A stretch of DNA of 64,000 nucleotides from Verrucomicrobiota bacterium (GTDB taxonomy: Bacteria; Verrucomicrobiota; Kiritimatiellia; CAIQIC01; JAGNIJ01): positions 113,010 through 177,009 of the forward strand of contig JAKLGK010000001.1 of assembly GCA_022710725.1 (NCBI GenBank). Direction: 5' to 3'. How positions within the stretch are numbered: the stretch's first letter is position 1; every line of letters starts with the position of its first letter. A program made the position numbers and the translations under genes. The notes under the pieces are model-generated. The model had not been told where the DNA came from. It saw only the letters and a program-made list of their open reading frames with translations, and did not search any database. This document shows, piece after piece, positions 50,101 through 64,000 of the stretch.

Positions 50101-53100
50101 GACGGCGTTATGGACGCCCAGCGTCGCGCTCGCGCCCCAGCACTCGCCGAAGAAAATCTTCTCCGTCGCGCCGTGCATCAGGCTGGCGCCGGCCCACTTC
50201 TGCGCGCCGTCCCACGTGAAGTTCATGATGAAGGCCGCGTACACCTTGCCGCTCGTCCGCGCGGCGAACGAGCGCGATACGTACAGGCCCGCGTTATTCG
50301 AGGGCACCATCACGATCTTATTGCCCGTCGGCGTCGGGTAGTTCGTCTGGCCCGAGAAGCTGCCCGCGTGGTTCGTGACCCAGCCGGTGTTGCCCGACCA
50401 TGCCCCGCTCCAGTCGTTGCTGCCCGCGCAGTTCGCCAGCGTCGTGCCGTTGGTGTACGAGAACGTGTCCACGATCTCCTGCGCGGCGAACTGCTCCGTC
50501 GTCTCGGAATCCGTCAGGCCGGCGGAATAGTGGTTGTTGTTCACGGAGTAGAACGCGTAGTGGTGCTCCGTGCCGGACGCGACCATGTGCTCCAGGCTCG
50601 AGCCCGAGCCCTTGTAGATCACCGTGCCGCTGCCGCAGGAATCCCCAATGTTGTACGTCGTGCCTTGCGTCGGCGCCGTCGAGGCCGCGCCCGGCCGGTG
50701 GACGATCATCACGTCGTACGTGGCGTTCTTCGTCCACGCCAGGTCCATCAGGGTCTTGCCATCCGCCGTCGCGGTCGCCACCGACGGATCGGGGATGTTC
50801 GTCAGGACCAGGACGGCCTGCACGACCTGCGGGCTGTTCGTCGCCGCGTCGTTGCCCGCGCCGGTGTTGGTCACCGTGTTCGTGCCGTAGTAGGTCCCCG
50901 CGGACAGGCCCGTCGCCACAAAGAAGTTCGTGTGGACCTTGCTCGCGCCGTTCGCCAGGCTGCTGCCCGTCAGCGGCCGCACGGTCAGCCAGGCCGCGTT
51001 GGTCGAAAGCACGTACGACAGCGCCCCGCCGCCGATGTTCGTCACGGCGAAGGTGTGGCTCGTCGGCGTGGACCCTACCACGCCGTACACCGCCAGCGCC
51101 GCGCCCACGCCGATGCCCGGGTGGCTCTTCAGCGTCACCGTGCCCGTGGCGGAATTGACGCTCGTGCACAGGGTGTTCGTCCCGCGCACGCGGTAGTAGT
51201 ACACCCCGCCCTCCGTCAGCCCCGTCACCGCGTTGCTCGTCGCCGATACCGCCACGTTGGAGTAGCCGGTCGCATAGGCGATCGCGTTGGACGTGCCGCC
51301 GACGATCACGTCGTCGAAGGCCAGGTTGCCCGCGCTCTTGGTGTAGGTGAAGCGCAGCTTCGTGACCGATCCCGACAGCGGCATGTTCGTGTTCTCGCCC
51401 GTGGTCGGCAGCGGCATGATCGTGGACACCGTGCTCCAGCTGCCGGCATAACCCTCCACCAGCAGCGACGAACTCGCGTCCGTGCCGTTGCCCTTGACCC
51501 AGATCGTCACGCCCGTCGGGCTGCCGCCCAGCGTCGGGGTCTCCACCGCGTCGCCCGTGGCGTCCATCTGCAGCGACGGCGAGCCGCGGCCGTAATTGCC
51601 ATCGGAGGAATAGGTTCCGCCGATGGCGGTGAAGGTCCAGCCGCCGGGCGGGGTCGTCCCGCCGTCAAACGCCTCGTCGATCAGCAGGGCGGCCACCGTG
51701 CTGCCCTGGTAGACATCCAGCTGGTACCCGGTCGCGCCGGCCAGCGCGCTCCAGTTGGCCGTGAAGTCCGCGAAGTTCGTCGGGTTGGCGTAGAGGCCGA
51801 TCGGCCCGTTGGTGAAGCAGGACGCGACGTTCGTGACCACGTAGCCGTAGCCCGCCCCGATCGTGTTGGTCGCGTAGGCCCGGACGTAGTAGGTCTGGCC
51901 GGGCGTCAGGTTGGCCATCGTCGCCGAGAACTCGCCCAGACCCGAGCCGTTGGTCGTGCAGGGGTCGGCGATCGTCGGCGGGTTGGACGTGCTCCAGCAG
52001 ACGCCGCGCCGGGTGACCGTCGCGCCCTTCTCGTCCGTCACGTTGCCGCCGCTCACGGCGGAGCCCGGGATGTTGTTGCTGATCGCGAAGGTCGTCACGG
52101 CCGGCGTGTCCAGCGGGGCCTGGCTGCCCGTCCGCGGGTCGCTGGTCCGGTAGTTCTGGAGCCCGTCGTCGCCGTTGAACTCGTAGATCGCCACGTGGTA
52201 CGTCACGCCGGCGGTCAGGGCGGACATCACCACGCTGGTCCCGCTGCCGATGTACACGACGTAGTTGCCCGTGCCGAGCTGTGTGCCGCTGCCGAAGGCC
52301 GCGTTGTTCGTGTAGCCCATCCCGTCCGCCGGGTTCGAGTCCACCGCGCTCCCCTGCTTGACCACCACAATGGAGTTCGCGCCGTCCCCGCCGGACCAGC
52401 CGATCTGGAAGCTCGTCGCCGTGATGAGCGTGAAGGCCACCGCCGTCGGGTTCGCCGAAGGCTCCGCCGCGAAGGTCGTCGCGTTCGCCGTCGGGATCGT
52501 CGCCGCCGTCAGGTAGTTGTAGGTCTGCCATTGCCCGCCGTCGGCGTTGAACGGGACGATCGAGAAGTTGTACTGCGTGCTCGCCGTCAGGTTGCTGACC
52601 GTCGTGCCCGTCTCGGCCCCGCCGGTGACGATGTTCACCAGGGTCGCGTCGCCGAAGACCGTGGCGAGGGCGTAGTTCGTGCCGTCCGTCGGCGTGCCCG
52701 TCGGGTCGGCGCCCTGCCGCCGGAGGATCAGGTAGCCGTCCACCGGCGCGGACGCCGCCGTCCACGACAGGTTGATCGTCGAGGCCGAGGCCGCCGCGGC
52801 CGCGAAGCTGCCCGCGTGGCCCGCCGGCTCCGCGCTCAAGGTGTACGCCGTGATGACGTTCGAGTTCGAGCTCGCGCCGCTGGCGTTCTCCGCCCGCACC
52901 CGGTAGTAGTACGTCGCGCCCGCGGCCAGGTTGGTCACCAGCTCCGTCGTCGCGCTGACCGAGCGGTTCGAGTAGCCGGGGACGTAGGAATCGCCGGCGG
53001 AAATGCCCCGCAGCAGGACGTCGTCCACGCGCATGGCCGTGCCGCCCGTCTTGACCCAGCGCAGGCTCAAGTTGGCGCTGATCGCCTCCGCGGCCAGCCC

Positions 53101-56100
53101 GAGGTTGGTGACCATGTACCAACCGGCGCCGTCCCCCTCCGCCGGCATATTCGACACGGTGACGGCGTTCCACGCCGTTCCGCTATTGGTGGACCACTCC
53201 AGGTTGAACGTCGCGTTGTTGCCCGCGGCTTCCTTGCGGTACCCGAAGTTCAACTGGAGATAGGCGTAGCCCGTCGAGTCGATCCCGGCGATGCTGAACC
53301 CGTAGTCGCCGGACGTGGAGGTGTGGTAGACGTTGGCCGCGTCGGAGGCCGCGTTGCCGGCCGGGTCGGTGTACCCGCTGGACGAGCTGGTGGCCCGGAG
53401 ATCCGCCGGGCTCGCGGCGCCGCCGTCGGACATGGTGTACCCGTCGTTATCAAAGCCGTTGGCCGATTCGTGCGACGCTATGGTCGTCGTGCCGCCGACC
53501 GTGCCCATGGTCTCGCGGAACACCGTTGTGGTCGTGCCGCCGCCCGAGCTGAAGTCCGAACTCGTGGCCACGTCCAGCCGGTAGCCCGTGGCGCCGGAGA
53601 CGGCGTTCCAGTTGGCCCAGAAGTTGGCAGTGGTCCAGTTCGTCGCCGCCGTGGCGATCGGCGCGGCACAGAGGGTCAGGGCCGTGTTGGTCGTCGAGTA
53701 GACGCTGATGCCGCCGCTGTCCTGGGCGCGCAGCCGCCAGTAGTAGGTCGTCGCCGCAGTCAGGCCCGTGACGCTGAAGGTCGTCACGTCGCCGATCACG
53801 CGGGCCGAGTAGCCGTTGACGAAGCCGGCGAACGTCGAGGACGCGGAGGCGTCGAGCAGGTAGTTCGTCGCCCCCGTCGCCGCGCTCCAGTTGGCGGAGA
53901 AGCTGGCGACCGCCAGGTCCGACGCCGCGCTCAAGACCGGCGCGTCGGGCACGGTCCAGAAGGAGCCGTCGGCCGAGTAGGCCTTGCCCTGCGTGTTGCT
54001 GGCCCAGCCGCGGAAGTAGATTAGCGTGCCCGCGGGCAGGCCGCTGCGCGCGTGCGAGAAGACGCCCGTCGCCGTGCCGCCCTCGCTCGCTTCGTTGGCC
54101 GTCGGCGTCGCCGAGGTGTCCCACACCGTGCCGCGCGAGCCGAGCGCCACGCCGCCGTTGGTCGAGATCTCCGCGCCCAGCGTCGCGCCGTTGGCCGTGA
54201 CCGAGGCGTAGGTCGGGTTGATCACCGTCGGCGCGGCCTGGCTGGCGCGCCGGCCCGGCTCGCCGCTGGCCTGGAAGTCGCCCCGGCTGGCGCTCGTGTT
54301 GTTCGTCGCCCGCACCCAGTAGTAGTACTGCTGGCCCGCCGTGGCGCTCGTGTCGTCGTAGTTCGTCGTGCCCGCCGTGACGCTGGCCAGGAAGGAGGCC
54401 GAGCCGGAAGCGTCGGAGGTGTGCCGCCAGATCCCGTAGCTCGTTTCGCCCGCCAGGTCACCCCACTGCAGCGCCACCCGGTCGGAGTACAGGTCGTCGC
54501 TGGCCACGACGTTCGAGACGATCATGAGCTTCCGGTAGCCGCTGTCGGAGGCGCTGAAATCGCTCTGGCTGGAGGTCACGTTGTTCGTCGCCCGCACCCA
54601 GTAGTAGTAGAGCTGGCCGAAGTCGGCCGTGGCGTCGTCGTAGCCCGTGGCGTCCGCGGCCGCGCTGCCCAGGAACGTCGCGCTCCCGGAATCGTCCGCC
54701 GTGTGGCGCCAGATCCCGTAGCTCGTCTCGCCCGCGCCGTCCGTCCAGGCGACGGCCACCTGCACGGTGGAGGCGCCGTCCCCGGCCGTCACCCCGCCGA
54801 CCGTCGCCAGCTTCCGGTAGCCGGCCGAGCCGCTGGCCTGGAAGTCGCTCTGGCTCGAGCTCGTGTTGTTCGTCGCACGCACCCAGTAGTAGTACTGCTC
54901 GCCCGCCGTCGCCGATGTGTCGTTGTACGTCGTCGAACCCGCCGCCACGCTGGCGACGAACGACGCCCCGCCCGAGGCGTCCGCGGTGTTCCGGTAGATC
55001 GCGTAGCTCGTCTCGCCCGAGATGTCCGTCCAGTCCACCTGCACGTGCGCCGTGCTCGTGCCGTCCGACGCCCCCGTCACCGACACCGTCGCCATCTTCC
55101 GGTAACCGCTGTCCGACGTGCTCTCCGCGCTCGAGCCGGCCGGGTTCGTCGCCGTGACCCAGTAGTAGTAGAGCTGGCCCGCGGTCGCCCCGGTGTCGTT
55201 GTAGGTGAGGGTGTTCGCCGCGTTGGTGTAGATCGCCGTCGAGCTGGCGAAGGTGTCGACCGTGTTGCGCCACAGGACGAAGCCGGTCTCGCTGGAGACG
55301 TCGTTCCAGCTGTTGCTGACGTGCGCCGTGGAGCTGCCGTCCGAGGCCGCGAGGCCGGTCGGCGCCGCGGGCGCCACCTGGCTCGTCGTCACCGTCTGCG
55401 TCGTGGAGTCGGCGCTGACGCACGACCCGCCGCCCACCGCCCGCACGCGGTAGTAATACGCCGTGTCCGCCGTCAGCCCCGTCACCACCTGGCTCACCGC
55501 CGAGACGGAACGGTTGGAGAAGCCGGGGACGAAGCTGGAGCCGCCGCCCAAAGAGGTGACGATGATATCGTGCACGTAAACGGCGCCGGAAGGCTCCGAC
55601 AGACGTAATTCGACGCTCGAATTGGCGTCGTTCACGTAGTTCGAAAACACGGCGCCCGTGGTCGTGGGGTCGAAGGTGGTGACATCCGTCCAGCCCCCGC
55701 CGTTGACGTTCTTCTGGAGCTTGATCGTGCGGCTCGCGCCGGCATCCAGATGAAAGACCGCCGACCCGACGGTATTGAGGGCCGGCAAGGCCAGGATGCC
55801 ATTGGCGGCTTTCAATTGGACTCGCCCCACGGTGCAAGGCCCATCGGCGGAAGCGCTGGGCTGGATGATGCAACGGGTCATCGTGACCGTGCCGGCCGCG
55901 ATGATCTCCGTATACGAACCATAACTGGCTTGAGCCGTCCAACTCTGGATGTTCTCCGAAACCAGCGTGCTCGGCGCCCCGCCGCCGAATGTTCCGTTCG
56001 TGGCGACGTCCAGCTGGTAGCTGGCCGCGCCGCCGAGGGCGGTCCAGTTGGCGGTGAAGTTGGTGGAGCTGATGGCGCTGCCCGCCGCGCTGGTCGGCGC

Positions 56101-59100
56101 GACCTGGAAGCAGTCGGCCACGAAATTCGACTCGTCGCCGTATCCGGTGGGCGAGGCCTCGCTGTTCTGGGCGAAGGCGCGGACGTAGTAGGTCTGGCCC
56201 GGGGTCAGGCCGGTGATGTCGCTGTAGAAGATGCCGGTGCCGGTGCCGTTGGTCGTCCGGGCGTCGGCAATGGTCGGCGTGCCGCCGGTGTTCCAGCACA
56301 CGCCGCGGTTGGTGACGGCGGAGCCGCCCTGCAGGCTGATGTTGCCGCCGCTCTTGATGCTGGTCGGCAGGCTGTTGCTGAACGCGGCCGTGGTCAGCGT
56401 CGGCGGCCCGCCCGCCGGCGTGAAGGTCAGGACCAGGCACCCGCCGCTGGCGGCCAGCGAGAACCCGCCGCCGCCCAAACCCAGGCTCCACGCGCTGCTC
56501 GAGTCCAGGCTGAAATTCGCGGCGGACGAGATGCCGCCGCCGATCAGCACCCAGGAGTACGCGTTCGCGTTGTTGAAGTTCGACGTCACGTCGTCGTCGA
56601 TGACAATCGTCGTCGTCGCGTTGATCGTCGCCGTGCCGGTGCTGTTGGTCACGTAGTCGCGGTCGAGCGTATCGGAGCAGTTCCCGATCTGGAAGACCGC
56701 CTTCGAGCCGTTGTTCATCGTCAGCGAGGACACGAGCAGGCGCCCGATGGCGTTCGACGTCGCGCCCGGGTACATCGTGCCGGCCACGGTCAAGCCGCCC
56801 ACGCTGCCGGAGCCCGTCAGCGTGCCCGCGGCGTTGACCGTGATGGCGGAGCTGGTGTTCGTGCCGTTCATGATCAGCGTGCCGGCGCTGACCGTCGTCG
56901 CGCCGCTATAGCTGCTGGCGCCGGTGAGCTTCAGCGTGCCGGTCAGGAGCTTGTTCAGCGTGTTCCCGCCGCTGATCGCCCCGCTCAAGGTCAGCATGTC
57001 CAGCGACACGCCGATGGACGTCGCGGCGTTCAGCGAGATCGTGCCGGACACCGTGTTGTTGCCCGCGACGTTGCGCAGCGCGCCGAACAGGCCGCCGCCG
57101 GTGCCGCTCAACACCAGGTTCTCCGCCGAGGTGATGTTGTTGGTCAGCTCCAGCCGCCCGCCGCTGGCGACCGTGGTGCTGCCCGCCGAGGTGCCCAGGC
57201 CGTTGTTGTGCGCGATCCGGATCGTGCCCGCGTCGATCACGGTCCCGCCGCTGTAGCTGTTGTTGTTGGTGAACAGCACCATCCCGGCGCCCCGGTTCGT
57301 CACGTAGCCGGTGCCGCTGATGACGCCGAGGTAGTTCGTGTCGTCCGTGCGGTAGAACGCGAGGGCCGAGTTGTTGACGATGCTGGCGGCCGTCACGGCG
57401 CCGGCCGTGCCGTTGGCGCCGAGCTGCACCGCGCCCGCGCTGATCGTCAGCGCGCCGCTGAACGTGTTGTAGCCGGTCAGGGTCAGCAGGCCCGCCCCGT
57501 CCTTGGTCACGGTCCCCGCCCCGGTCCCGATGGCGCTGCTGACCACGATGTTCGAGGCGCCGCCGAAGGTGAGGTTGTAGCCGCTGCCGGAAATGGCCGT
57601 CGCGGAGTTCAGCGTCAGGATGCCCGAGTCGGAATTGATCCGCACGCCCGTGCTCTGCAGCGTGATCGCGCCGGCGAAGGTGTTGTTGCCGCTGATGTTC
57701 CGCAGCGCGCCGCCGCTGGCGATGCCCGTGCCGTTCAGGAACAGCGGCTCCGCCGCCGTCGTGATCCCGCCCGCCAGCTCCAGCGCGCTGGCGGTCGAGT
57801 TGGCGACGTAGGTGTTCCCGCCCGTTCCGCCCAGGCCGTTCGCGTTCGTCACCCGCACCACGCCCTGCGTGATGGAGAGGTTGCCGCTGAAGGTGTTGTT
57901 GCCCGCCAGGATCAGCGTGCCCTTTCCGATGTTCGTCCAGGCCGCCGAGTTCTGGATCACGCCGTTGACCGTCGCCGTGCTGTCCGGCGCCACCCAGATC
58001 CGCGGGCCGGCGGTGGTTCCCAGCTCGATGGTCCGGTTCGCGTGCAACGTGAAGACGTTCGTGAAGCCCAGCGTGCCCGTGCTCCAGACGTTGATCTTCT
58101 CCCCCGCGCCGCCCGGCACCGGGCCCGCCGCCAGGTCCGCCCCGAACGCCAGGATGCCCGCCGTAATGTGCGCCACGCCCGAGTTGGTGTTGAACCCCGT
58201 CAGCGTCAGCATTCCCGACTCCACTTTCTGCCAGTTCGCCGTCCCCACCATGCTGCCGCCGTAGCTCACCGCGTTCCCGCTGGTCACGCCCAGCTTCGGC
58301 GTGGCCACGTCCCCCAGCCGTATGCCGCGGTTGGCGTTCAGGGCGAAGGATCCCGTGAACTGCAGCGTGCCGCTCGACCAGACCTCGAAGTGGTTGGTCA
58401 CCAGCGAGGCGGGCGCCGCGCCGAAGCACAGGTCCGCCGAGCCCTGCAGGATGCCGTTTTCCGCCGCCGAACCGCCCGTGTAGGTGTTGGTCGTGCAGCC
58501 CAGCGTGATCGTGCCCGTGCCGATCTTGTAGAGGCGGTTGGCCGTCGTGCCCGACGCGCAGGCCGCGCCCAGGCCGTCCGTGATCAGGCCGTTGATCGTG
58601 GACGTGCCGTTGCCCCCGCCGAACTCCACCGCGCCGGTGTCTCGCACGGTGGCCGTCTGCTTCCAGTAGGAGTTCTGGCGGTTGTCACCCCAGTCCCACT
58701 GGTACCGCCGGTCGTCATTCAGGAAGATCGAGTAGGCGTCGATGCGGGCCGACGTCGCCGGCGAACCCGCCATCGTCCAGTCGTATTTCGTCTTCCCGTT
58801 CAGGTCCACGTTGAACGTCGAGCTGGAGGTGATCTTGACCTTGACCGTGTAGTTTGCCGCCGACGAGCCCGCGGGCGTGTTCGTGAAGGATTCCCCCGCC
58901 CCGCTGCCGATCGCGTACCACGACCCGATGCCCCCGCCCGACCCGTAGTTCCCGCCGTCCTGACGGACGGACAGTCGCGACCCGCTGACCCGGTTCGCCC
59001 ACGGCGTGCCGGTCGAGCCGCCGTCGTTCAGCGACACGCCGATCTCGCCGTAGTAGCAGCCGTAGCTGTACACGGTGATGCTGAACTCGTCGCCCACCTG

Positions 59101-59880
59101 CAGCTCGCGCGCGGAGGAGGTCGTCGCGCTGGCCGTGCGGAACGTCTTCCAAGCCACCGTGTAGCCCTGGTCGCCGCCCGCCCACATGCCCAGTTCGGTG
59201 CTCCCCCCCGTGTCGAACGTGCCGGCGCCGCTATCCCACCGCGTGTCGTACTGGCTCTGCTGCTGGAGATTCGTGACCGCGGAGAGGTTCTCGCAGGTGT
59301 TCATCTTGTACAGCTCAACATACGTTGAGGCGCTGGAATAGGCGGCAAACCGGGGCGAGCTCGAGTTGTACTGCAGTTTGCGCGCAGACGCGGCGCCCAC
59401 ATTTTGAATCAAGAACCGGCTGGACGCAGTGGTGGCGAACGTCCAGTGCCAGATTGTCGCAGAGCTGGCGGAAGCGGATCTGATCATGCCGTTGGCGGCG
59501 GGGGCGCCGATGTAGATGCTGCCAGCCTCATTGTAGATGCCATAGCTGCTCGAAACCGCATCGATTCTCCACACGCGCCCGACGGCCGGGTCCACAATGG
59601 CGCTGGCGGTGATGGTGACCGCCTGGGCGGAGAGGGCTGCCGTGGATACCGTCGCGAGCGCCGAAGACGCCATCGCGTTGGCGGTGCCGCCGCCGACGAA
59701 GACGTAGTAGCCGCCGGAGGTGATGTCGGCCGTGGACGTGATCAGGGTGAACGTCCCCGACCCGGAGTAGGCGGCCTCGGACCGCATCGGCGCGAGGCAC
59801 CAGGCCGCCGCTGCGATCGCCAGCGCCAACGGCCGCCAGCCGCGCCGGGCGACAGGCTTCGACATCGTTTCATGCTTCAT
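41110..59880 (-). CDS. giant secreted Ser/Thr/Gly/Asn-rich surface protein (6256 aa): signal peptide, PATR (autotransporter-associated beta-strand) repeats, FN3-like arrays, large internal repeats, D-x-D-x-D-R modules
   Basis: It is a single uninterrupted ORF, and I counted all 6256 residues. The N-terminal 'MKHETMSKPVARRGWRPLALAIAAAAWCLAPMRSEAAY' is a signal peptide. Residues ~440-1160 are PATR repeats such as 'GTLILAGNNTFSGNLSITQGVVRV' and 'GMVLFTNNNSYSGGTVIDAGTIRI'. FN3-like modules recur with '...TYYYRVRA / YYYWVRATN'. A GGAGGAG RBS lies 8 nt before the ATG at 59880. Confidence 0.85.
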   Translation of the reverse strand: MKHETMSKPVARRGWRPLALAIAAAAWCLAPMRSEAAYSGSGTFTLITSTADITSGGYYVFVGGGTANAMASSALATVSTAALSAQAVTITASAIVDPAVGRVWRIDAVSSSYGIYNEAGSIYIGAPAANGMIRSASASSATIWHWTFATTASSRFLIQNVGAASARKLQYNSSSPRFAAYSSASTYVELYKMNTCENLSAVTNLQQQSQYDTRWDSGAGTFDTGGSTELGMWAGGDQGYTVAWKTFRTASATTSSARELQVGDEFSITVYSYGCYYGEIGVSLNDGGSTGTPWANRVSGSRLSVRQDGGNYGSGGGIGSWYAIGSGAGESFTNTPAGSSAANYTVKVKITSSSTFNVDLNGKTKYDWTMAGSPATSARIDAYSIFLNDDRRYQWDWGDNRQNSYWKQTATVRDTGAVEFGGGNGTSTINGLITDGLGAACASGTTANRLYKIGTGTITLGCTTNTYTGGSAAENGILQGSADLCFGAAPASLVTNHFEVWSSGTLQFTGSFALNANRGIRLGDVATPKLGVTSGNAVSYGGSMVGTANWQKVESGMLTLTGFNTNSGVAHITAGILAFGADLAAGPVPGGAGEKINVWSTGTLGFTNVFTLHANRTIELGTTAGPRIWVAPDSTATVNGVIQNSAAWTNIGKGTLILAGNNTFSGNLSITQGVVRVTNANGLGGTGGNTYVANSTASALELAGGITTAAEPLFLNGTGIASGGALRNISGNNTFAGAITLQSTGVRINSDSGILTLNSATAISGSGYNLTFGGASNIVVSSAIGTGAGTVTKDGAGLLTLTGYNTFSGALTISAGAVQLGANGTAGAVTAASIVNNSALAFYRTDDTNYLGVISGTGYVTNRGAGMVLFTNNNSYSGGTVIDAGTIRIAHNNGLGTSAGSTTVASGGRLELTNNITSAENLVLSGTGGGLFGALRNVAGNNTVSGTISLNAATSIGVSLDMLTLSGAISGGNTLNKLLTGTLKLTGASSYSGATTVSAGTLIMNGTNTSSAITVNAAGTLTGSGSVGGLTVAGTMYPGATSNAIGRLLVSSLTMNNGSKAVFQIGNCSDTLDRDYVTNSTGTATINATTTIVIDDDVTSNFNNANAYSWVLIGGGISSAANFSLDSSSAWSLGLGGGGFSLAASGGCLVLTFTPAGGPPTLTTAAFSNSLPTSIKSGGNISLQGGSAVTNRGVCWNTGGTPTIADARTTNGTGTGIFYSDITGLTPGQTYYVRAFAQNSEASPTGYGDESNFVADCFQVAPTSAAGSAISSTNFTANWTALGGAASYQLDVATNGTFGGGAPSTLVSENIQSWTAQASYGSYTEIIAAGTVTMTRCIIQPSASADGPCTVGRVQLKAANGILALPALNTVGSAVFHLDAGASRTIKLQKNVNGGGWTDVTTFDPTTTGAVFSNYVNDANSSVELRLSEPSGAVYVHDIIVTSLGGGSSFVPGFSNRSVSAVSQVVTGLTADTAYYYRVRAVGGGSCVSADSTTQTVTTSQVAPAAPTGLAASDGSSTAHVSNSWNDVSSETGFVLWRNTVDTFASSTAIYTNAANTLTYNDTGATAGQLYYYWVTATNPAGSSAESTSDSGYRKMATVSVTGASDGTSTAHVQVDWTDISGETSYAIYRNTADASGGASFVASVAAGSTTYNDTSATAGEQYYYWVRATNNTSSSQSDFQASGSAGYRKLATVGGVTAGDGASTVQVAVAWTDGAGETSYGIWRHTADDSGSATFLGSAAADATGYDDATADFGQLYYYWVRATNNVTSSQSDFSASDSGYRKLMIVSNVVASDDLYSDRVALQWGDLAGETSYGIWRHTSDASGSASFLASVTAGTTNYDDTSATAGQQYYYWVRATNNTSASRGDFQASGEPGRRASQAAPTVINPTYASVTANGATLGAEISTNGGVALGSRGTVWDTSATPTANEASEGGTATGVFSHARSGLPAGTLIYFRGWASNTQGKAYSADGSFWTVPDAPVLSAASDLAVASFSANWSAATGATNYLLDASASSTFAGFVNGYSARVIGDVTTFSVTGLTAATTYYWRLRAQDSGGISVYSTTNTALTLCAAPIATAATNWTTANFWANWNAVSGATGYRLDVATSSDFSSGGGTTTTVFRETMGTVGGTTTIASHESANGFDNDGYTMSDGGAASPADLRATSSSSGYTDPAGNAASDAANVYHTSTSGDYGFSIAGIDSTGYAYLQLNFGYRKEAAGNNATFNLEWSTNSGTAWNAVTVSNMPAEGDGAGWYMVTNLGLAAEAISANLSLRWVKTGGTAMRVDDVLLRGISAGDSYVPGYSNRSVSATTELVTNLAAGATYYYRVRAENASGASSNSNVITAYTLSAEPAGHAGSFAAAAASASTINLSWTAASAPVDGYLILRRQGADPTGTPTDGTNYALATVFGDATLVNIVTGGAETGTTVSNLTASTQYNFSIVPFNADGGQWQTYNYLTAATIPTANATTFAAEPSANPTAVAFTLITATSFQIGWSGGDGANSIVVVKQGSAVDSNPADGMGYTNNAAFGSGTQLGTGNYVVYIGSGTSVVMSALTAGVTYHVAIYEFNGDDGLQNYRTSDPRTGSQAPLDTPAVTTFAISNNIPGSAVSGGNVTDEKGATVTRRGVCWSTSNPPTIADPCTTNGSGLGEFSATMANLTPGQTYYVRAYATNTIGAGYGYVVTNVASCFTNGPIGLYANPTNFADFTANWSALAGATGYQLDVYQGSTVAALLIDEAFDGGTTPPGGWTFTAIGGTYSSDGNYGRGSPSLQMDATGDAVETPTLGGSPTGVTIWVKGNGTDASSSLLVEGYAGSWSTVSTIMPLPTTGENTNMPLSGSVTKLRFTYTKSAGNLAFDDVIVGGTSNAIAYATGYSNVAVSATSNAVTGLTEGGVYYYRVRGTNTLCTSVNSATGTVTLKSHPGIGVGAALAVYGVVGSTPTSHTFAVTNIGGGALSYVLSTNAAWLTVRPLTGSSLANGASKVHTNFFVATGLSAGTYYGTNTVTNTGAGNDAATNSPQVVQAVLVLTNIPDPSVATATADGKTLMDLAWTKNATYDVMIVHRPGAASTAPTQGTTYNIGDSCGSGTVIYKGSGSSLEHMVASGTEHHYAFYSVNNNHYSAGLTDSETTEQFAAQEIVDTFSYTNGTTLANCAGSNDWSGAWSGNTGWVTNHAGSFSGQTNYPTPTGNKIVMVPSNNAGLYVSRSFAARTSGKVYAAFIMNFTWDGAQKWAGASLMHGATEKIFFGECWGASATLGVHNAVSTKKLDYGSGNDYVIIMRYDFSTDDAHASAYKIGADSVPDSEPGSWDAEYLNVGGVTQIDGISLRAGASEGYGTPGVVYFDEVRVATNWSELLAVVPSKPEDPVSASATADGNEMVRLGWEKNGAGNGVMILYKTSAISTDPTDGTTYSLNDTIDGATVIYKGTGDTLEHVVADGSSAYYQFYSYNAVNYYSTGLTANVTMGSYQSYEIVNPFSYTNATAPGTATKGGKGFGDNYWAVSGSWGIRTNSPTAEAAAIPRFVNIEGYTDMAGNLMRITGLGNGSSGYAERSLGAAINSGQIYVAFMMAYQYYGSNKWAGLSFYNGATEKAFFGKASGANWYTLGVAGDGGTAWSGYDLRPYGGGAEAHTGSVYLVLGKYDFSTKNLQANAYNLPTATEFPSSEPTSWDVTRTLGTGIDSVDRIRLNVGALNPDCGSIGDVYFDEIRLATNWSQLVGVTCPTWIGSNNVPVAVTNLGNSLTFECQTYPIGSGQSADLQIRWTDQTTSTYSMAWSSNHNNNSWWSYSAQMTKTGVHDFVYLAYGGSCSVISTNPSGSLTVNALVNPNPVSATRDSVNTNSQINLAWTKNTVGHDVMIVRNTSGSFTAPTPGTAYYAGETLGSDTVVYRGNASSFDDTGLASSQTYYYRFYSENYSYYSTGTVDSASTLGGSQAIVVDGNPADWQGTAGSTYNASTVSRNEFIWKDKCGEERKDVANTTNADIREVRIYADTTNVYFLVKYGDVTSDQHPYINIGLDTRRSSASGAMNWIGDDSGTFYGGNYFAGGQAAVHYAQRNITVHRADGAMQVEVYADDGGTWYGPPAGSAAAASAANNAMEFWINRSDLLVSSPVTARFTVASFLNNDLWNNSGDGTVQILAGTPDAADAASIAPEQVNDGDLSQSAWQEDISDNSIDFWFDVVFDANGVVANSIPSTPAVGFPTNNYAATANPTLWWNASTDSDGQVTGYFLEVGTNETLNGESGTTENGSIFLRVNLPATQTNYTLSTSATQYWWRVRARDTAGALSSGQIQMFRIGGKGDITGPLHTLLYIGTNLTGYLAGDFDAHIDKYGPIQSITDAEIQQAVNAIGFAIKIEDPSGVYATNRQNNSGPAPSNFTWNIVSDDGRVSPNWDVFRLYSDGSSNELGYDAVFYGSNIASSAGNSSPSITAWVHNAFTISGYDETIEYYLTVSSEDGCTENGSWAAYGSWNSYGAPAATYGGYCEDGPNTARNVSTNELIRINVTDDDDDVPTFAYGAQWASSRTLLASNATALLTASGSGQSVIYTGTDGGMTGTPLTLLFNAYDYYSGLQLSAAGSADTNTSLSVGSSSWQTNNIANYSASRSTVGDTTETNTVLAWHWDSLAFSDMTALWAGDGSGSAGETNPVMLTLRDTDHDRTDDASVASNVVFGYLQVTDDDSVAPSHTQFTIDGVGGYGSTNLLPGNIAVVGVNGSPSAKIEKFAFVVLAPFPAGTIVHFTDCGWADNAGTNWHRVTEFHTNLWIATGDADVGQVFELGLQDINSGGDQVTVYQYNGSVNASNDPDRVTFLYAVNMLGTNTAPQADGWYLPIVPTNNLCSALYRGLTNGVTAVSVGGAESVNIIYTGRLTGSSSELLASISDSNNWQVAASATDLNFSNFAFSVTSQGGMEWQTPNLTDAQVSTGQYTVVDVVSDYTSGLLATNNAYASAPHFLLYNADGDMALSNAMSVGFPNGVPVTTQALTRTASTGMWNYINIGTYSAVVYVTDFDFDRLNDNQDGSLAMPVAVTDDDADAPLFTNLTALGTGAGLTENGTMVLYDFDIPVDETTYTFTTNADTVVAHVTAGAVLGGGVDAINQGTGNPGYCAVTSKFYQAYQYLDFTLTVESGYALTVTNLTFMDNRSSTGPTDWYFLYSGDSYATALASGNHADTNWKTNSTALSLSSLEGAVTFRLHATNATGSTGSWRVDNLRLQGSLAPLPGSGLVSDQDLNQGTLSITARVTDATSGVYSNRHPTYGTRFDLVTPAGASLFNQQPFNIGPTNASQTIGEWANLYATNLSVAFANIVLGVHTASVYAADADNDRPDDNLQYTQQIAVTVIDDDTNPPVGGTIFQSMTKDKPFDYPNLHGPMVLYQGTTNASAAGVSTNRRWSLNDRMMQNVGSTNTPYLHINLYDESGYHRSGTEALSNLTLTIEGFITNDVSYLSLASSSASTTNNPAATNVWVFTSFGDMSFVGTTSKVTVSVSDTDKDRPDDASVLTAYQVGYIAWKDNDPSPAILQFPTNQTANTNALTVLLGPSPGAPTSNLWTYSTHPEDASNQVYAVSDGELAGVSGSSQLMLGFHSYDLGDDNVLGLQRDTTATTTSDGRTLTNTHISIGSVVSSNTANYSSGWSSSIGETRIAAQNATSYWAFTTFTSNQVGQFWDAAGHSNAIVLHALDSDNDRPGDQARTNLNAGWLVVYDDDTNAPTAPTALSVSPTDWTNANSFTLSFTDSSDASGILHYRYDTNAPASLTNGTEMPVSRIITGVAEGEITNRLFAVDADHDRAFDGQMSETTNFVTRLDQHAPPQIMGITVDEGEDPTTEVELNWTAAANAGNRPDGATLSPWNSYRIYFSEDGSTVTTSSAYFDGYTGQAALTNMSVSTVTLSNLIFGSDYKFRIVGRDRAGNEGPLSDEVVIVLPGFNVTQGLVKATSGDIRYSEIFWVAATNQSGGVNREYDLLWVDGSSFNDGMSNQWQFLQSGFTNSLSDTGGLNRTAPTLLTSNMRFYRAASKDRWMTNRSPRVASEEVYGLRTVTLYPGQNWVGLPVVPDSNTLKNVLGHYLPGGSAYTDPHSTIVTWYSRLTNETVQKDVYLLDWGSSNEWRTGQGWGGMNQVADHYAFPFDESVAINIPTNETQTYLLMFIGRVPTNNQTQVIQPNGAYNLVNMRLPCTMSPAQMNLLASGFKGGVGSMSADRIRKLNRQQQGVGFDVYYNTTRSRWEYVNNSSAAGFTISPDDGFLIWTRGSTTPWTWTNVPPYSLPTRLMNP

Positions 59881-60353: not shown

Positions 60354-62546
60354 CTACTCGATCCAGGCTTTCCCCGCCCGATACGATGCCAGCCGGGCCT
60401 CGATCTGCGCCGCCAGGTCCAGGCCGCCCCCCTCCCGCGCGAGTTCGGCGCCGCGTTTCGCCGCCTGGATCGCCCCGGGGAAGTCGCCGGCGTTCGCGCG
60501 CGCCGCGCCGAGCGTGTCCCACGCCGTGGCGGCCTTCCCGCCGTCCAGCTCGACCGCGCGCGCCGCCCATTCCACCGCCTTCGCGGGCCACTCCTCCATG
60601 CTGGCGTGGTTGACATCGACCGGCTTGGCCGTGGCGAGCAGCCACGCCATGTTGTTGAACGCCACGGCGTCCCGGGGATGCCGCTTCACGTACTCGAGGA
60701 AGTAGCCGTAGGCGTAGCCCCGCGCCCCGTCCAGCCAGATCTGCGCATAGCAGGGGAACAGGTCGCCCCAGGTGCGCCGGGGCTTGCCCGCCGCCTTGGT
60801 CATGCGCTCGGCTGCTTCCGCCGCCTCGTTCGTGCGGCCGGTCTCGTGGCAGACGCGGAGGTATTCCGCCACCGCGAAGGCCGTCGGGTCCTTTTCGAGG
60901 GCGACGGCCTCCTTGAACGCGCCGAACGCGCCGTCGAGGTCGCCCCGCGCCTGCATGCATTGCCCGCGGATGCGCCAGATGAAAATCCGCTCCAGGGGCC
61001 GCTGGTCCCGGACGGCTTCCATCAGGGTCTTGCCGAGCCCCTTCTCGAACCGGGGCCAGGCGTCCTCGGTCAGGTTCGGCCAGCCGCAGCAGTTCCAGAT
61101 CATGCACAGGCGCAGGAAGCAATGGGTGTCGTAGAACGCGCTGCCGGCCTCGTATGCGCGCATCGCCTGCGCCCAGTTCTTCTGGGACAGGTGGCCATCC
61201 CCGCCGAGCATGCAGGCGACCGGGTGGCCCGGGTTGTACGTCCATACCCAGATGCCGAAATGGTCGCGGCTCCGCCAGTGCCGCGACAGGGCCAGCGACA
61301 TCCCGCCCCACACGGCCAGGACCAGCGCGCAGGCGGCGGCGCCCCGCCGCGCGCTCCAGCCGCGCGAACGAATCCAGTCCGCCGCCGCCCACGCCGCGGC
61401 CAGCGTCAGGCCGATCTGCGGCAGGTACATGAACCGCGTAGCCACCCGCTCCGCCCCGGCCCAGATCACGCCGCTCAACGGGAAGAGCAGGCCCGCGAAC
61501 CAGAGCCAGCCCCAGAGCGCGAGGGGGAACCGGTGGCGCAGGCGCCACGCCCCCCAGGTCAGGCCCGCCAGCACGCAGAACGCCCCGGCGAGGAGTTCCC
61601 ACCACGACGGCAGGTCCGGCTGCAGCGGCATCAGCCGCGTCGGCCAGGCCAGCTTGGCCAGGTAGAAAAGGTAGTGGACGGGGATCATCCCCACGCGGTG
61701 CAGCACGGGCACGCTCACCACGGCCTTCCGCGCCACGTGGAACGCGATGGGCAGCGAGGCGAACCCGATCGCCAGGAGCCAGAACGCCCACTTCTCCGCG
61801 ATCAGTCGCCCCGCGTCCTTCCAGAAGCGACTCCAGTCCGTGCGGCCCAGCGGCCAGATGTCCAGCAGCAGGAAGGCCACCGGCATCACGATGACGACCT
61901 GCTTGGCCATGCCCCCGAGGAGCATGCAGAGCCAGGAGAGGAGGATGTACGAGGACGAGGAGGAGGACGAGGAAGAGGAAGAGGAGGAGGATTGGCGGGA
62001 GGCGGTGTAGAACCAGAAACCGAGGAGGATGAAAACCCCGCTCAACACGTCCTTCCGCTCGGTGATCCAGGCCACGCTCTCCACGCGCGTCGGGTGGAAG
62101 GCCCAGAGCAGCGTCGTCGCCAGCGCCAGGCCCACGCGGCCCGTCCAGCGCCGGATCAGCAGGAAGAGCAGGCCGACGTTCAGCGAGAAGAGGATCACGT
62201 TGGTCAGGTGGCAGCTCCACGGCGGCCCGCCGGAGATCTCCATGTCCAGCATGAAGCTCATCCAGAGCAGCGGCGCCCAGTAATTCTCCGGCGCCGTGGT
62301 CCACGCCAGCCGGAGGCCCTTCCAGGAGAAGCCGTCCCCGACCACCGGGCTGGTCTCCACGTAGATCGGGTCGTCCAGGGTGACGAAATCGTAGCCGATG
62401 GTCGGCGCGTACAGCGCAAAGGCGGCCGCCATCGCCAGGAGGCACGCCCCGGCGGCGCGCCCGCGCCCGCTGAAAAGACGACGGGGCTGATCGCGCGTCG
62501 GTTCAGCCAGCTTGCGTTTATCCGCTCTCATGTCTTTCGCCGTCAT
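60354..62546 (-). CDS. TMTC/PMT-like (DUF1736-type, GT-C fold) membrane protein with C-terminal TPR repeats; putative protein O-mannosyl/glycosyl-transferase
   Basis: N-terminal loop motif 'YDFVTLDDPIYVETSPV' (F-x-x-D-D) and 'AFHPTRVESVAWITERKDV' (HP..E.V..I..R.D) are the conserved TMTC/PMT loop signatures. There are more than 9 TM helices and a C-terminal TPR block. A 13-residue poly-Ser run is present. Confidence 0.7.
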   Translation of the reverse strand: MTAKDMRADKRKLAEPTRDQPRRLFSGRGRAAGACLLAMAAAFALYAPTIGYDFVTLDDPIYVETSPVVGDGFSWKGLRLAWTTAPENYWAPLLWMSFMLDMEISGGPPWSCHLTNVILFSLNVGLLFLLIRRWTGRVGLALATTLLWAFHPTRVESVAWITERKDVLSGVFILLGFWFYTASRQSSSSSSSSSSSSSSYILLSWLCMLLGGMAKQVVIVMPVAFLLLDIWPLGRTDWSRFWKDAGRLIAEKWAFWLLAIGFASLPIAFHVARKAVVSVPVLHRVGMIPVHYLFYLAKLAWPTRLMPLQPDLPSWWELLAGAFCVLAGLTWGAWRLRHRFPLALWGWLWFAGLLFPLSGVIWAGAERVATRFMYLPQIGLTLAAAWAAADWIRSRGWSARRGAAACALVLAVWGGMSLALSRHWRSRDHFGIWVWTYNPGHPVACMLGGDGHLSQKNWAQAMRAYEAGSAFYDTHCFLRLCMIWNCCGWPNLTEDAWPRFEKGLGKTLMEAVRDQRPLERIFIWRIRGQCMQARGDLDGAFGAFKEAVALEKDPTAFAVAEYLRVCHETGRTNEAAEAAERMTKAAGKPRRTWGDLFPCYAQIWLDGARGYAYGYFLEYVKRHPRDAVAFNNMAWLLATAKPVDVNHASMEEWPAKAVEWAARAVELDGGKAATAWDTLGAARANAGDFPGAIQAAKRGAELAREGGGLDLAAQIEARLASYRAGKAWIE

Positions 62547-63034
62547 GCCTCTTGCTCGTCCCCGCGCTCCTTCACTCCCTCGTTCTCGTCCTCTTCCTCG
62601 TCCTCGTTCTCGTCCTCGACCTCATACTCCATTCCGGCTTCCATCACCCGATCCGTTACAGAGAAACGATCCACCAATTTTGTGAGCATGGCAACAATCC
62701 GGACCAGCAGCATCTTTCCCTGCTCAACACGTTTTTCGGAACAAGCGTGTTTCGCGACCAACGCGTCGAGGCACGCCGCGCATTCCGTGGCCGAACCCCG
62801 GGCATCATCGAAGAACTTGGCCCGGGTTTTCATCGGCCGCTTGCCATTGCCCTCCGCCGTATTGAAAAGAGAGGAAAGACCGGCCCGGTCCAGGTGATCA
62901 CAGACCTCCGCAATCCTGCGCCCCCGGGCCTCGGCAGACTCGACCAGTTCCACCATCAAATCCGTTGACCATTCGACGAACCGCAGTTCGACCTGGTAGA
63001 CATCAAGGTTCTCGTGGTCCAACTCGTTTTGCAC
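62543..63034 (-). CDS. four-helix-bundle protein (TIGR02436-like, '23S rRNA intervening-sequence protein' family) with acidic C-terminal tail
   Basis: 'LDVYQVELRFVEWSTDLMV...SATECAACLDALVA' are conserved helices, and the tail is 'EYEVEDENEDEEEDENEG'. The GTG start at 63034 is preceded by an AGGAAAGGA RBS. Its stop overlaps the start of the TMTC-like gene. Confidence 0.75.
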   Translation of the reverse strand: MQNELDHENLDVYQVELRFVEWSTDLMVELVESAEARGRRIAEVCDHLDRAGLSSLFNTAEGNGKRPMKTRAKFFDDARGSATECAACLDALVAKHACSEKRVEQGKMLLVRIVAMLTKLVDRFSVTDRVMEAGMEYEVEDENEDEEEDENEGVKERGDEQEA

Positions 63035-63049
63035 GGAGGTTTCCTTTCC

Positions 63050-63285
63050 TCTCGTCCTCGTACTCCTCCTCGTCCATCGTTCCCGATCTCATCCCCTGCT
63101 CTTGTCGAGTACGACGGACGATAACGAGGACGACCGGAAATTCGCGTTTATTCGGCCGCAATCCTCCCCCATCGTTCCCGGTCTCCTCCTCGTCCATCGT
63201 CCTCGATCTCACCCCCCCCCGCTCTTGTCGAGTACGGGGGACGAGAACGAGGACGACGGGAAATAAGCATTCCTTCGGCCGCGAT
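63050..63285. repeat. tandem direct repeat, 2 copies of a ~118-bp unit, each with an internal imperfect inverted repeat
   Basis: The units at ~63050-63167 and ~63168-63285 share TCCTCCTCGTCCATCGT...GATCTCA...CCGCTCTTGTCGAGTAC...GGACGA.AACGAGGACGAC.GGAAAT...TTCGGCCGC.ATC. Within each unit TCGTCCTCG pairs with CGAGGACGA, and GTACTC with GAGTAC. Confidence 0.6.
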
Positions 63286-64000
63286 CATTCCCGCCACGCC
63301 AGGCCCATCCGGTATTTCAGGATGCGCTTTTCGATATCCGTTGCCAAGGCGTCATCCTTTTTCTCCTTGGCCAGGTCCCGCGCCTTCTCCGCCGCGCGGA
63401 CGGCGCCCGTGGAATCGCCCGCGTTGGCGCGCGCGGCGGCCAGCACGTCCCACACGCCGGGGAGCGACGGGTCGCCCGATGCGAGCGCGAGTTCCGCCCA
63501 GCGCACCGCGGCCTGCGGCCACTCCTCCATCCGCGCGTGGGCCAGGCCGTCCGGCATGGCCGTGGCCAGCAGCCAGGCCATGTAGTTCAGGTTGACGGCG
63601 TCCCCGGGAAACCGTTTCGCGTACTCGGCCAGGTAACCATACGCATACCCGCGGGCCCCCCGCTTCCACATCTCCGCGTAAAACGGGAACAGGTCGCGCC
63701 ACGCGCGGACGCGGACGTCCCCCGCGGCCGCCAGGCGCTCGGCCGCCTCGGCGCCCTCCTCCGGGCGGCCGGCCTCGTGGCAGGCGCGAAGGTAGTCCGC
63801 CACGACCAGGGCCGCGGGATCGGGCTCCCACCGGACGGCTTCCTTCAGCGCCGCGATCGCGCCGGCATGGTCGCCCCGGGCGAGCAGGACCTGCCCGCGC
63901 ACGCTCCAAGCCAGTTCCCGCTCCGGGGCCGGCTCCCAATCGGCGAAGCCCAGCAGCGGGAGGCCCCACTTCCGTTCGAACTCGACCCAGGCCGCCGCCG
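63285..64000 (-). CDS. TMTC/PMT-like TPR membrane protein, paralog of 60354..62546 (3' part only; gene continues beyond the window)
   Basis: The C-terminal 205 aa align residue by residue with the C-terminal TPR region of the neighbouring paralog ('LFPFYAEMWKRGARGYAYGYLAEYAKRFPGDAV' against 'LFPCYAQIWLDGARGYAYGYFLEYVKRHPRDAV'). The frame stays open to nt 64000. Confidence 0.65.
   Translation of the reverse strand, partial: AAAWVEFERKWGLPLLGFADWEPAPERELAWSVRGQVLLARGDHAGAIAALKEAVRWEPDPAALVVADYLRACHEAGRPEEGAEAAERLAAAGDVRVRAWRDLFPFYAEMWKRGARGYAYGYLAEYAKRFPGDAVNLNYMAWLLATAMPDGLAHARMEEWPQAAVRWAELALASGDPSLPGVWDVLAAARANAGDSTGAVRAAEKARDLAKEKKDDALATDIEKRILKYRMGLAWRE

Follow-up and report, generated by a model that had tools for sequence, protein, structure and literature searches.

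The 64-kb stretch of DNA that we analysed (64,000 nt, positions 113,010 to 177,009 of contig JAKLGK010000001.1 in the Verrucomicrobiota bacterium assembly GCA_022710725.1, hereafter the window) contains two tandem hairpin-forming units between a gene for a four-helix-bundle (4HB) protein and the first of two TMTC-like/TPR paralogs, here called paralog A and paralog B. We think it probable that these units are hairpin modules, devoid of an open reading frame (ORF), of a 4HB (PF05635) gene cassette that was inserted between the two paralogs. The arms of the units are copies of the end of the adjacent 4HB gene, the block that they form with this gene is absent from the same junction in related genomes, and relatives of the gene in unrelated contexts are enclosed by an inverted repeat of the same kind.

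All genes near the units lie on the minus strand. An earlier note on this DNA, made from the letters alone, had described a tandem duplication of ~118 bp and ~85% identity with an inverted repeat in each copy. The duplication is real, with a period of ~123 bp: at 63063-63286 Tandem Repeats Finder detects 1.8 copies of a 123-bp period (83% matches, score 323), and when the sense-strand units (63163-63290 versus 63035-63162) are aligned with MAFFT, 86% of the columns are identical and a single 3-nt indel separates them. Each unit is 123-127 bp long and carries a left arm (L) and a right arm (R') with no coding signal, and folding against 200 shuffles confirms a strong hairpin in both. Among the motifs quoted at the time, ATGGACGAGGAGGAG occurs in both units and the arm GAGTACGAGGACGA in unit 1 only. 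The 16-mer CGTACTCGACAAGAGC occurs exactly twice in the window, once per unit, and the intergenic region is identical, with the same orientation, in 10 contigs of the same species from different samples.

Either unit is built of L, a short loop and a partial sense copy of the tail (R'), which makes it an inverted duplication of the 4HB gene's 3' end. The 5' arm of unit 2 (63239-63256) shows perfect 18-nt reverse complementarity to 62598-62615, which lies in the repeat run encoding the acidic tail of the 4HB protein (the R arm). This tail region recurs in sense orientation in the 3' half of both units, as in unit 2 where TGAGATCGAGGACGA...GGACGAGGAGGAG corresponds to TGAGGTCGAGGACGAGAACGAGGACGAGGAAGAG in the gene. 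Local alignment of loop plus R' with the last 150 nt of the gene gave z = 6.7 for unit 2 and 7.9 for unit 1 relative to shuffles, values that are inflated by hexamer periodicity. The arms also carry this gene's own tail variant (GTT/AAC), unlike the family consensus. A window unit is equivalent to a cassette that lost its ORF. The resemblance to the acidic-tail end of the 4HB gene that had been remarked on before holds for the sense half, but the antisense copy had been missed and the units are more than 3'-end remnants.

The junctions in related genomes indicate how the units arrived. Three such genomes (loci are cited here by L numbers; L074, L075/76 and L077) encode paralog B orthologues with 71-76% amino acid identity and keep the same order of paralog A, paralog B and a giant protein, and at their paralog A/B junctions neither the 4HB gene nor the units are found. 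The paralog A stop and paralog B start overlap as GGGAATGA in L074 and L075/76, and in L077 the two genes are 5 nt apart. The units therefore belong to an insertion and not to an ancestral leader of the TMTC-like genes. At the left junction of the window cgggaATGA is followed by TCGCGG where the empty sites read cgggaATGAAGG or cgggaATGAGCA, and at the right junction ATGA stands between AGAGGC and CGGCG. This ATGA flanks the entire 742-bp block and not the individual units, and as far as the sequence goes its presence at both ends is compatible with a 4-bp target duplication. After insertion the paralog A stop is kept and the 4HB stop overlaps the paralog B start. One hairpin module together with the 4HB gene would thus have entered the ATGA stop/start overlap between the paralogs, as the empty sites suggest, preserving the stop of paralog A and recreating the overlap with paralog B; the module would then have been duplicated locally, since the units are each other's closest relatives.

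The inserted gene belongs to a large protein family. Its product matches PF05635 (23S_rRNA_IVP; E = 4e-11, 43.4 bits, cut-off 33.8) and TIGR02436 (four helix bundle protein; E = 7.5e-11, 42.2 bits, cut-off 24), with no PDB sequence match and no PADLOC match. PF05635 includes Avd, the accessory protein of diversity-generating retroelements (DGRs), and its presence inside intervening sequences of 23S rRNA has been a curiosity since the 1990s; to our knowledge this very large family has no known function outside Avd. Conservation of the protein is strong, with 45 columns invariant among 20 sequences, and this one subfamily has 3100 database matches at E <= 1e-5; no relatives were found on viral contigs and plasmids. 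Most of the 120 homologues listed lie on contigs of less than 2 kb, which suggests that repeats often break assemblies. A scan of a genome-contig collection with the 4HB protein yielded 11 useful loci, the source species not being among them.

Related 4HB loci were recovered from about 12 unrelated gene contexts, and the cassette subfamily so far comprises Verrucomicrobiota, Lentisphaerae and Kiritimatiellia assemblies. The neighbouring genes encode an ABC permease (L011), a PQQ propeller (L015), a SpoU methylase (L018, L078), a glycoside hydrolase 42 (L033/34), a carbamoyltransferase (L036) and hsdM/hsdS (L028), with other contexts in L027, L030, L032 and L079. In eight orthologous loci (L021-L026, L029, L031) the cassette sits between the E2 (acyltransferase) and E3 (dihydrolipoyl dehydrogenase) genes of an operon for a 2-oxoacid dehydrogenase, at the same insertion site in eight different Verrucomicrobiota assemblies/species (e.g. 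L024 2412-2983).

Where both ends of a locus are readable a pyrimidine-rich L arm (TCGTCCTCGTCCTCG type) precedes the start codon and its reverse complement R lies in the last ~30 codons, giving an L...ORF...R repeat of 15-35 nt. The arms are built of GAGGAC-type hexamers, so that R doubles as coding sequence for the protein tail. The inverted repeat spans 18-35 nt with 93-100% complementarity in the window, L011, L015 and L018, and further examples are those of L021-L025, L029, L036, L078 and L079 and, with split R runs, of L026. L028 departs from this layout, as its 4HB ORF lies within an array of hairpin units. Arm scores were 15-32 compared with ~7 (maximum 13) in shuffled upstream DNA, and arms matched each other better within loci (21.2) than between loci (18.1; permutation 0.0002), with locus-specific variants matched on both sides (GTT/AAC in the window, GTCGTCG/CGACGAC in L015). 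In most pairwise comparisons, cassettes from unrelated contexts are homologous from the L arm or its vicinity to a point within the R arm. The residues past the R arm are unrelated between loci, as though the ORF continues to the first stop codon, and poly-serine N-terminal extensions in some gene calls are read-through of the L arm. In published text on TIGR02436/PF05635, of which our coverage was incomplete so that this is absence of evidence only, we found no inverted repeats described around these genes outside rRNA.

The R arm is not read in one frame throughout. The ATCGAGGACGAGGAC... run encodes EDEDED in the window, L011, L015, L018, L030, L032, L033 and L036 and SRTRTRTR in L021-L025, L029 and L031, and this use of the same nucleotides in two frames shows that selection is on the DNA or RNA and not on the peptide. 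The insertion between E2 and E3 is an old one that has been passed on vertically. Over 3.3 kb its flanks have 68-90% identity, yet its arms are still perfect over 18-34 nt, which argues for maintained function or concerted evolution of the arms. In this group the repeat is read SRTRTRTRRKI, and the hexamers at its end (GGAGGA) stand ~10 nt ahead of the E3 start codon, resembling a ribosome-binding site. In eight simple cassettes L is paired with R in the predicted minimum-free-energy fold, enclosing the ORF in a loop of ~440-570 nt through long-range pairs worth 27-67 kcal/mol.

Hairpins without an ORF are also found beside other cassettes. L018, L032 and L033/34 each have one L-loop-R' hairpin upstream of the 4HB gene. 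In L018 loop plus R' aligns over 94 nt with the 3' end of the locus's own gene (z 12.4), and to judge from this alignment the hairpin is either a cassette with its ends kept and its middle lost or a partial copy of the gene's end. In L028 (Lentisphaerae metagenome-assembled genome CAITYL010000375.1, 1-3400) at least nine ORF-less hairpins surround the 4HB gene, hsdM and hsdS of a type I restriction-modification operon, and two of the units form a 155-bp tandem pair of 95% identity. Since such hairpins recur beside other cassettes, the window units appear as one case of a recurrent by-product of the cassette family.

The same loci raise the alternative that the units are independent miniature mobile elements, akin to MITEs (miniature inverted-repeat transposable elements), which transposed beside the 4HB gene or were attracted to it. 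The spread of hairpins through the restriction-modification operon of L028 would fit such an origin, and one 99-nt unit there (1834-1932) lies in frame inside hsdM, where its translation would contribute 33 residues (PSSSSSFSSSSSKPHSGKKTSTSTRDENDDDEG), a situation that recalls Rickettsia palindromic elements. Some 4HB cassettes are moreover contained in an element with an outer 23-bp terminal inverted repeat, ACTGGGTATCCCCTTTACTCTAG, which encloses those of L015 (2886-3487), L030 (2486-2835) and L032 (68-863). A 9-bp target duplication surrounds this repeat in L015 (9/9, AGTGATTGA) and L030 (8/9), which is the signature of transposition, and 4HB homologues mostly lie on very short contigs, as repeats do. 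The cassette of L030 is internally deleted and fused in frame to an upstream 856-residue ORF. No transposase partner was identified for the outer repeat of L015, L030 and L032, and no recognisable copy of this repeat is present at the window insertion.

Against a MITE-like origin of the window units, the 64-kb window and 10 kb beyond it (~74 kb of the source genome) contain no further unit copy and no other GAGGAC-type arm except a serine tract, and the unit-loop pattern TCCNNCGTACTCGACAAGAGC gave 12 chance matches and no unit-like one on metagenome contigs, a collection in which the source locus is not included. The two units are also adjacent, in phase and mutual best matches, and their arms fit the tail variant of this gene and not the family consensus. 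We consider independent mobility of the units unlikely. The dispersed repeat family proposed in the earlier note is accordingly not supported by the ~74 kb of this genome that were covered, although analogous ORF-less hairpins do multiply in another lineage, that of L028. A generic mini-hairpin pattern (TCGTCCTCG N15-45 GATCGRGRACGA) was also tried on viral contigs and rejected; its 25 matches were chance ones in GC-rich coding DNA with no 4HB gene nearby, and the pattern is too unspecific for a large collection.

The folding of the units bears on a second alternative, namely that they act in cis as a regulatory RNA leader of the 4HB gene and of the TMTC-like gene downstream of it, in which L would pair with R' or with the distant R and so set translation or mRNA stability. 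The predicted folding energies of the 128-nt sense-strand units are -57.8 and -52.5 kcal/mol (z of -2.8 and -4.0, respectively), with none of 200 shuffles as stable. The core hairpin of unit 2 spans 79 nt with 27 pairs (-48.7 kcal/mol) and the hairpin of unit 1 spans 100 nt with 33 pairs (-46.9 kcal/mol). In the predicted fold of the whole insert both L arms are captured by the local R' arms and the units form local hairpins. Besides these stable sense-strand hairpins, a leader would be consistent with the purine-rich, ribosome-binding-site-like 3' end of unit 1, which lies immediately before the GTG start of the 4HB gene and of which the stretch 5-20 nt upstream overlaps the base of the unit 1 stem, and with the L-R' hairpin directly 5' of the ORF that is shared with L018, the homology including R' (L001 9952-10487 versus L018 186-719).

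On the other side, the module is missing from many cassettes (L011, L015, L036 and those of the E2-E3 group) and the two window units fold in different registers. No terminator-like site was found on either strand in 62300-63500, the hairpins being followed by GGACGAGGAGG without a U tract, and no sigma-70-type promoter was found in the window block. Rfam 15 gave no family at gathering score in the window or in nine related loci; a permissive search returned only generic miRNA-precursor hairpin models at 17-29 bits against thresholds of 63-96. The G-U pairs have no strand bias across 11 mini hairpins, and MAFFT plus RNAalifold recovered only 12 nearly invariant pairs from these hairpins, whose alignment is poor because of hexamer-register ambiguity and variable loops. 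The folding and covariance check proposed earlier thus produced stable predicted hairpins and an alignment too poor for covariation. A structured RNA or attenuator, as envisaged in the earlier note, is weakly favoured by the predicted hairpins; the paralog pair of the relatives has no such element, a U-tract terminator is missing and Rfam has no match. A dedicated leader is in our judgement improbable.

That the arms are recombination sites of an invertible DNA segment with phase variation, the units being extra copies of the site, seems very unlikely. Perfect inverted repeats of 18-35 nt around a segment of 450-620 bp and the maintained identity of arms within a locus are typical of invertons, yet the single orientation noted above is found in 10 of 10 contigs of the species, the cassette is co-oriented with the upstream gene wherever one was called and no recombinase gene was noticed beside the cassettes, whose flanks were not searched for one. 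We give next to no credence to a small protein encoded by the units: the translations 'MRSRTMDEEE' and 'MRSGTMDEEEYEDER' given in the earlier note are correct and the 69-residue minus-strand ORF (63003-63212) with its repeated 'MRS(R/G)TMDEEE' motif spans both units in a frame that the 123-bp period preserves, but it was rejected on the codon-position pattern of the unit-to-unit substitutions (6/3/2 at positions 1/2/3, no third-position excess), it overlaps the 4HB start and the equivalent hairpins at other loci share no reading frame. As PF05635 includes Avd we also examined the mismatch spectrum for DGR template and variable repeats, and rejected these: of 22 unit substitutions the affected base is A in 11 cases on the unit 1 side and in 3 on the unit 2 side, which is not adenine-specific, and the unit repeats are adjacent and non-coding.

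We therefore return to the units as ORF-less modules of an inserted 4HB cassette. Of the three explanations offered in the earlier note the closest is that of 4HB 3'-end remnants left by semi-mobile cassettes; the 3' arms do copy the tail and the 4HB gene is inserted, while the reverse-complement copy of the tail and the L...R repeat around the gene throughout the subfamily had gone unnoticed. Given the absence of a recognisable promoter or terminator and the co-orientation with its neighbours, the block is probably co-transcribed with the host operon. Pairing of L with R in simple cassettes would close the ORF into a long double-stranded stem, as in 23S rRNA intervening sequences, and by analogy the transcript may be processed or stabilised through this stem. 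In the window the R' arms are predicted to capture the L arms, so that the stretch from paralog A to the 4HB start would hold a pair of hairpins, each of about -47 to -49 kcal/mol, and the R arm of the tail would stay unpaired. On this folding model the hairpins are likely to serve as elements for RNase III or for stability. Duplication most likely produced the second unit copy as a neutral by-product and not as a dedicated regulator, and the tandem duplication as such probably matters little for function.

Several points weigh against this account. The long-range L-R stem is absent from the predicted fold of the window locus, and closure of the kind seen in intervening sequences may therefore be lost here. 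The 11 mini hairpins have no consistent bias in stability between sense and antisense strands (the window and L018 favour sense; L028, L032 and L034 favour antisense), so that selection at the RNA level is inseparable from a DNA-level inverted repeat kept by recombination or transposition, and a purely DNA-level role of the repeat is compatible with the data. The ATGA repeat could reflect selection for intact stop and start codons instead of a staggered cut. Finally, the low complexity of the L and R arms raises the odds of chance complementarity, against which the shuffles and the frame-shift argument speak.

In comparison with the S23p/PF05635-bearing intervening sequences in the 23S rRNA of Coxiella burnetii, Leptospira, Xanthomonas and Brucella, the cassettes share a PF05635 ORF in the loop, terminal inverted repeats whose stem of ~20-35 bp closes a loop of ~430-600 nt and a position in a transcribed region with no obvious promoter of its own. 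Intervening sequences exist in ORF-less short and ORF-bearing long forms, and both forms are found here too. The enclosing stem is likewise present, with window arms matching 18/18 and arms of 15-35 nt at other loci, although in the window the local R' arms compete for it. In Coxiella the intervening sequence has a length of 428 nt, its ends pair in a 28-bp stem around a loop that holds an S23p (four-helix-bundle) ORF, and RNase III cuts it (PMC4990558). In contrast to these elements, the window block lies at the stop/start junction of a protein-coding operon and not in helix 25 or 45, and no rRNA was detected at Rfam gathering score in the window. Unlike in rRNA, the 3' arm of the cassette is inside the ORF and translated, the arms are a GAGGAC hexamer repeat, and the 4HB protein is strongly conserved whereas it is reported to be decaying in Coxiella. 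Excision by RNase III is known for the rRNA elements and is suggested here by analogy of layout.

Small palindromic elements offer a second comparison (reviewed in PMC2229807 and PMC10969869). RNase III binds the Correia repeat-enclosed elements of Neisseria and cleaves or protects them, altering the expression of neighbouring genes (PMC2649163). Correia and Rickettsia palindromic elements resemble the units in being palindromes of ~100-155 bp with terminal inverted repeats and no transposase that lie between co-transcribed genes, and the in-frame copy of L028 has its parallel in the Rickettsia elements. They differ in that the window units are tandem and not scattered, have arms derived from and matched to the coding tail of the adjacent gene, have no dispersed copies in the ~74 kb of source genome covered and have no identified partner insertion sequence (IS). 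With no dispersed copies demonstrated, the units cannot be filed as a MITE.

Two further designs are similar in part. Mobile insertion cassettes (MICs) and transporter IS elements carry passenger genes between IS-type terminal repeats and are moved in trans. The 4HB cassettes resemble them in having one non-transposase passenger gene between inverted repeats, in the outer repeat and target duplication of L015 and L030 and in the internal deletion of L030, but the window insertion has no outer repeat and is flanked by the 4-bp ATGA only, and the inner L/R repeat has no counterpart in MICs. In hok mRNA the fbi and tac elements pair over a long range between the 5' and 3' ends of one mRNA (fold-back inhibition). 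The likeness is in form only, a pairing of 5' leader and 3' end that encloses the whole coding region; the cassettes have no toxin and no antisense RNA, and their pairing is much longer and perfect.

A wider proposal, which we put forward tentatively and regard as rather doubtful, is that PF05635 genes of Verrucomicrobiota and their relatives are the cargo of undescribed 'intervening sequences of messenger RNA', that is, selfish palindromic cassettes at operon stop/start junctions that would be looped or cut out through the GAGGAC stem and spawn ORF-less hairpins. The host operon would keep working because the cassette is removed via the stem, and the 4HB protein, which is related to the nucleic-acid-binding Avd, might recognise the stem and aid maintenance or spread of the element. 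The broader pattern, a stem-enclosed 4HB ORF inside operons with a repeat that doubles as protein tail in two frames, merits a systematic survey. The design of rRNA intervening sequences exists in ordinary operons too, with a stem that has been kept perfect over long evolutionary distances, as in the eight species sharing the E2-E3 insertion, and that dictates the C-terminal tail of the protein, acidic in one frame and basic in another. This opens the question of intervening sequences to a broader setting in which the stem may be an RNase III site, a transposition end or both. For annotation it is a caution, as acidic or RT-rich tails and poly-serine N-terminal extensions are side-effects of a nucleotide-level repeat.

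Table 1 Features of the inserted block and its neighbours in the window
Feature	Position	Strand	Basis or remark
TMTC-like/TPR paralog A	stop codon 63287-63285	minus	first in 5' to 3' order, before unit 2
Left ATGA, containing the TGA stop of paralog A	63285..63288	minus	candidate 4-bp target-site duplication
Whole inserted block: unit 2, unit 1, 4HB gene and one ATGA, 742 bp	62543..63284	minus	absent at orthologous junctions
Unit 2, upstream ORF-less hairpin module	63162..63284	minus	Tandem Repeats Finder, MAFFT, folding; 79-nt core hairpin
L arm of unit 2, GTCGTCCTCGTTCTCGTCC	63239..63257	minus	reverse complement of 4HB tail, 18/18 versus 62598-62615
R' arm of unit 2, GGGGGGTGAGATCGAGGACGATGG	63194..63217	minus	sense copy of tail start; local pairing with L arm of unit 2
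Unit 1, downstream ORF-less hairpin module	63035..63161	minus	Tandem Repeats Finder, MAFFT, folding; 100-nt hairpin
L arm of unit 1, GTCGTCCTCGTTATCGTCC	63116..63134	minus	complementary 17/18 (94%) to 62598-62615
Distal R' arm of unit 1, GACGAGGAGGAGTACGAGGACGAGAGGAAA	63045..63074	minus	sense copy of tail; pairs with L arm of unit 1 and its TTTCC flank
Four-helix-bundle gene, 163 aa, GTG start	62543..63034	minus	PF05635, TIGR02436
R arm, GAGGAC-type repeat run encoding acidic tail EDENEDEEEDENE	62576..62617	minus	core 62598-62615 complementary to L arms of units 2 and 1
Right ATGA, ATG start of paralog B overlapping 4HB TGA stop	62543..62546	minus	junction comparison
TMTC-like/TPR paralog B	62546-60354	minus	3' of 4HB gene
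6256-aa repeat protein gene	41110-59880	minus	next after paralog B

A few smaller observations concern the cassettes and their surroundings. The 5' segment of the units (GCGGCCGAAGGAATGCTTATTTCC; 63260-63284 and 63135-63161) resembles a small hairpin after the L011 cassette (3490-3530; GAACGAAGGAATGCCCATTCC, GAACGAAGGAATGCCCATTCCTT) and is weakly like the outer right repeat of L015; homology could not be established. In L078 (2921-3270) R-type repeats 3' of the 4HB gene are expanded into a long tandem array with a scaffold gap (N run). The serine tract mentioned above is a run of 16 serines in paralog B (61934-61992), encoded by L-arm-like TCC/TCG/TCT repeats ~550 nt downstream of the cassette. 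We rejected it as an inserted L arm, as the corresponding place in paralog A holds a shorter run of serines ('SSSPS' only), and the run in paralog B is a simple-repeat expansion.

The neighbourhood of two TMTC-like paralogs and a giant surface protein is conserved between the window and L074-L077. The giant protein of the window has PATR and fibronectin-type repeats, and its counterparts in the related genomes were called at 2120, 8429 and up to 12869 residues. Very long ORFs run antisense to the giant gene (e.g. 1192 residues at 55750-59328 on the plus strand, among others); they are arginine- and alanine-rich, as is typical of spurious frames in GC-rich DNA.

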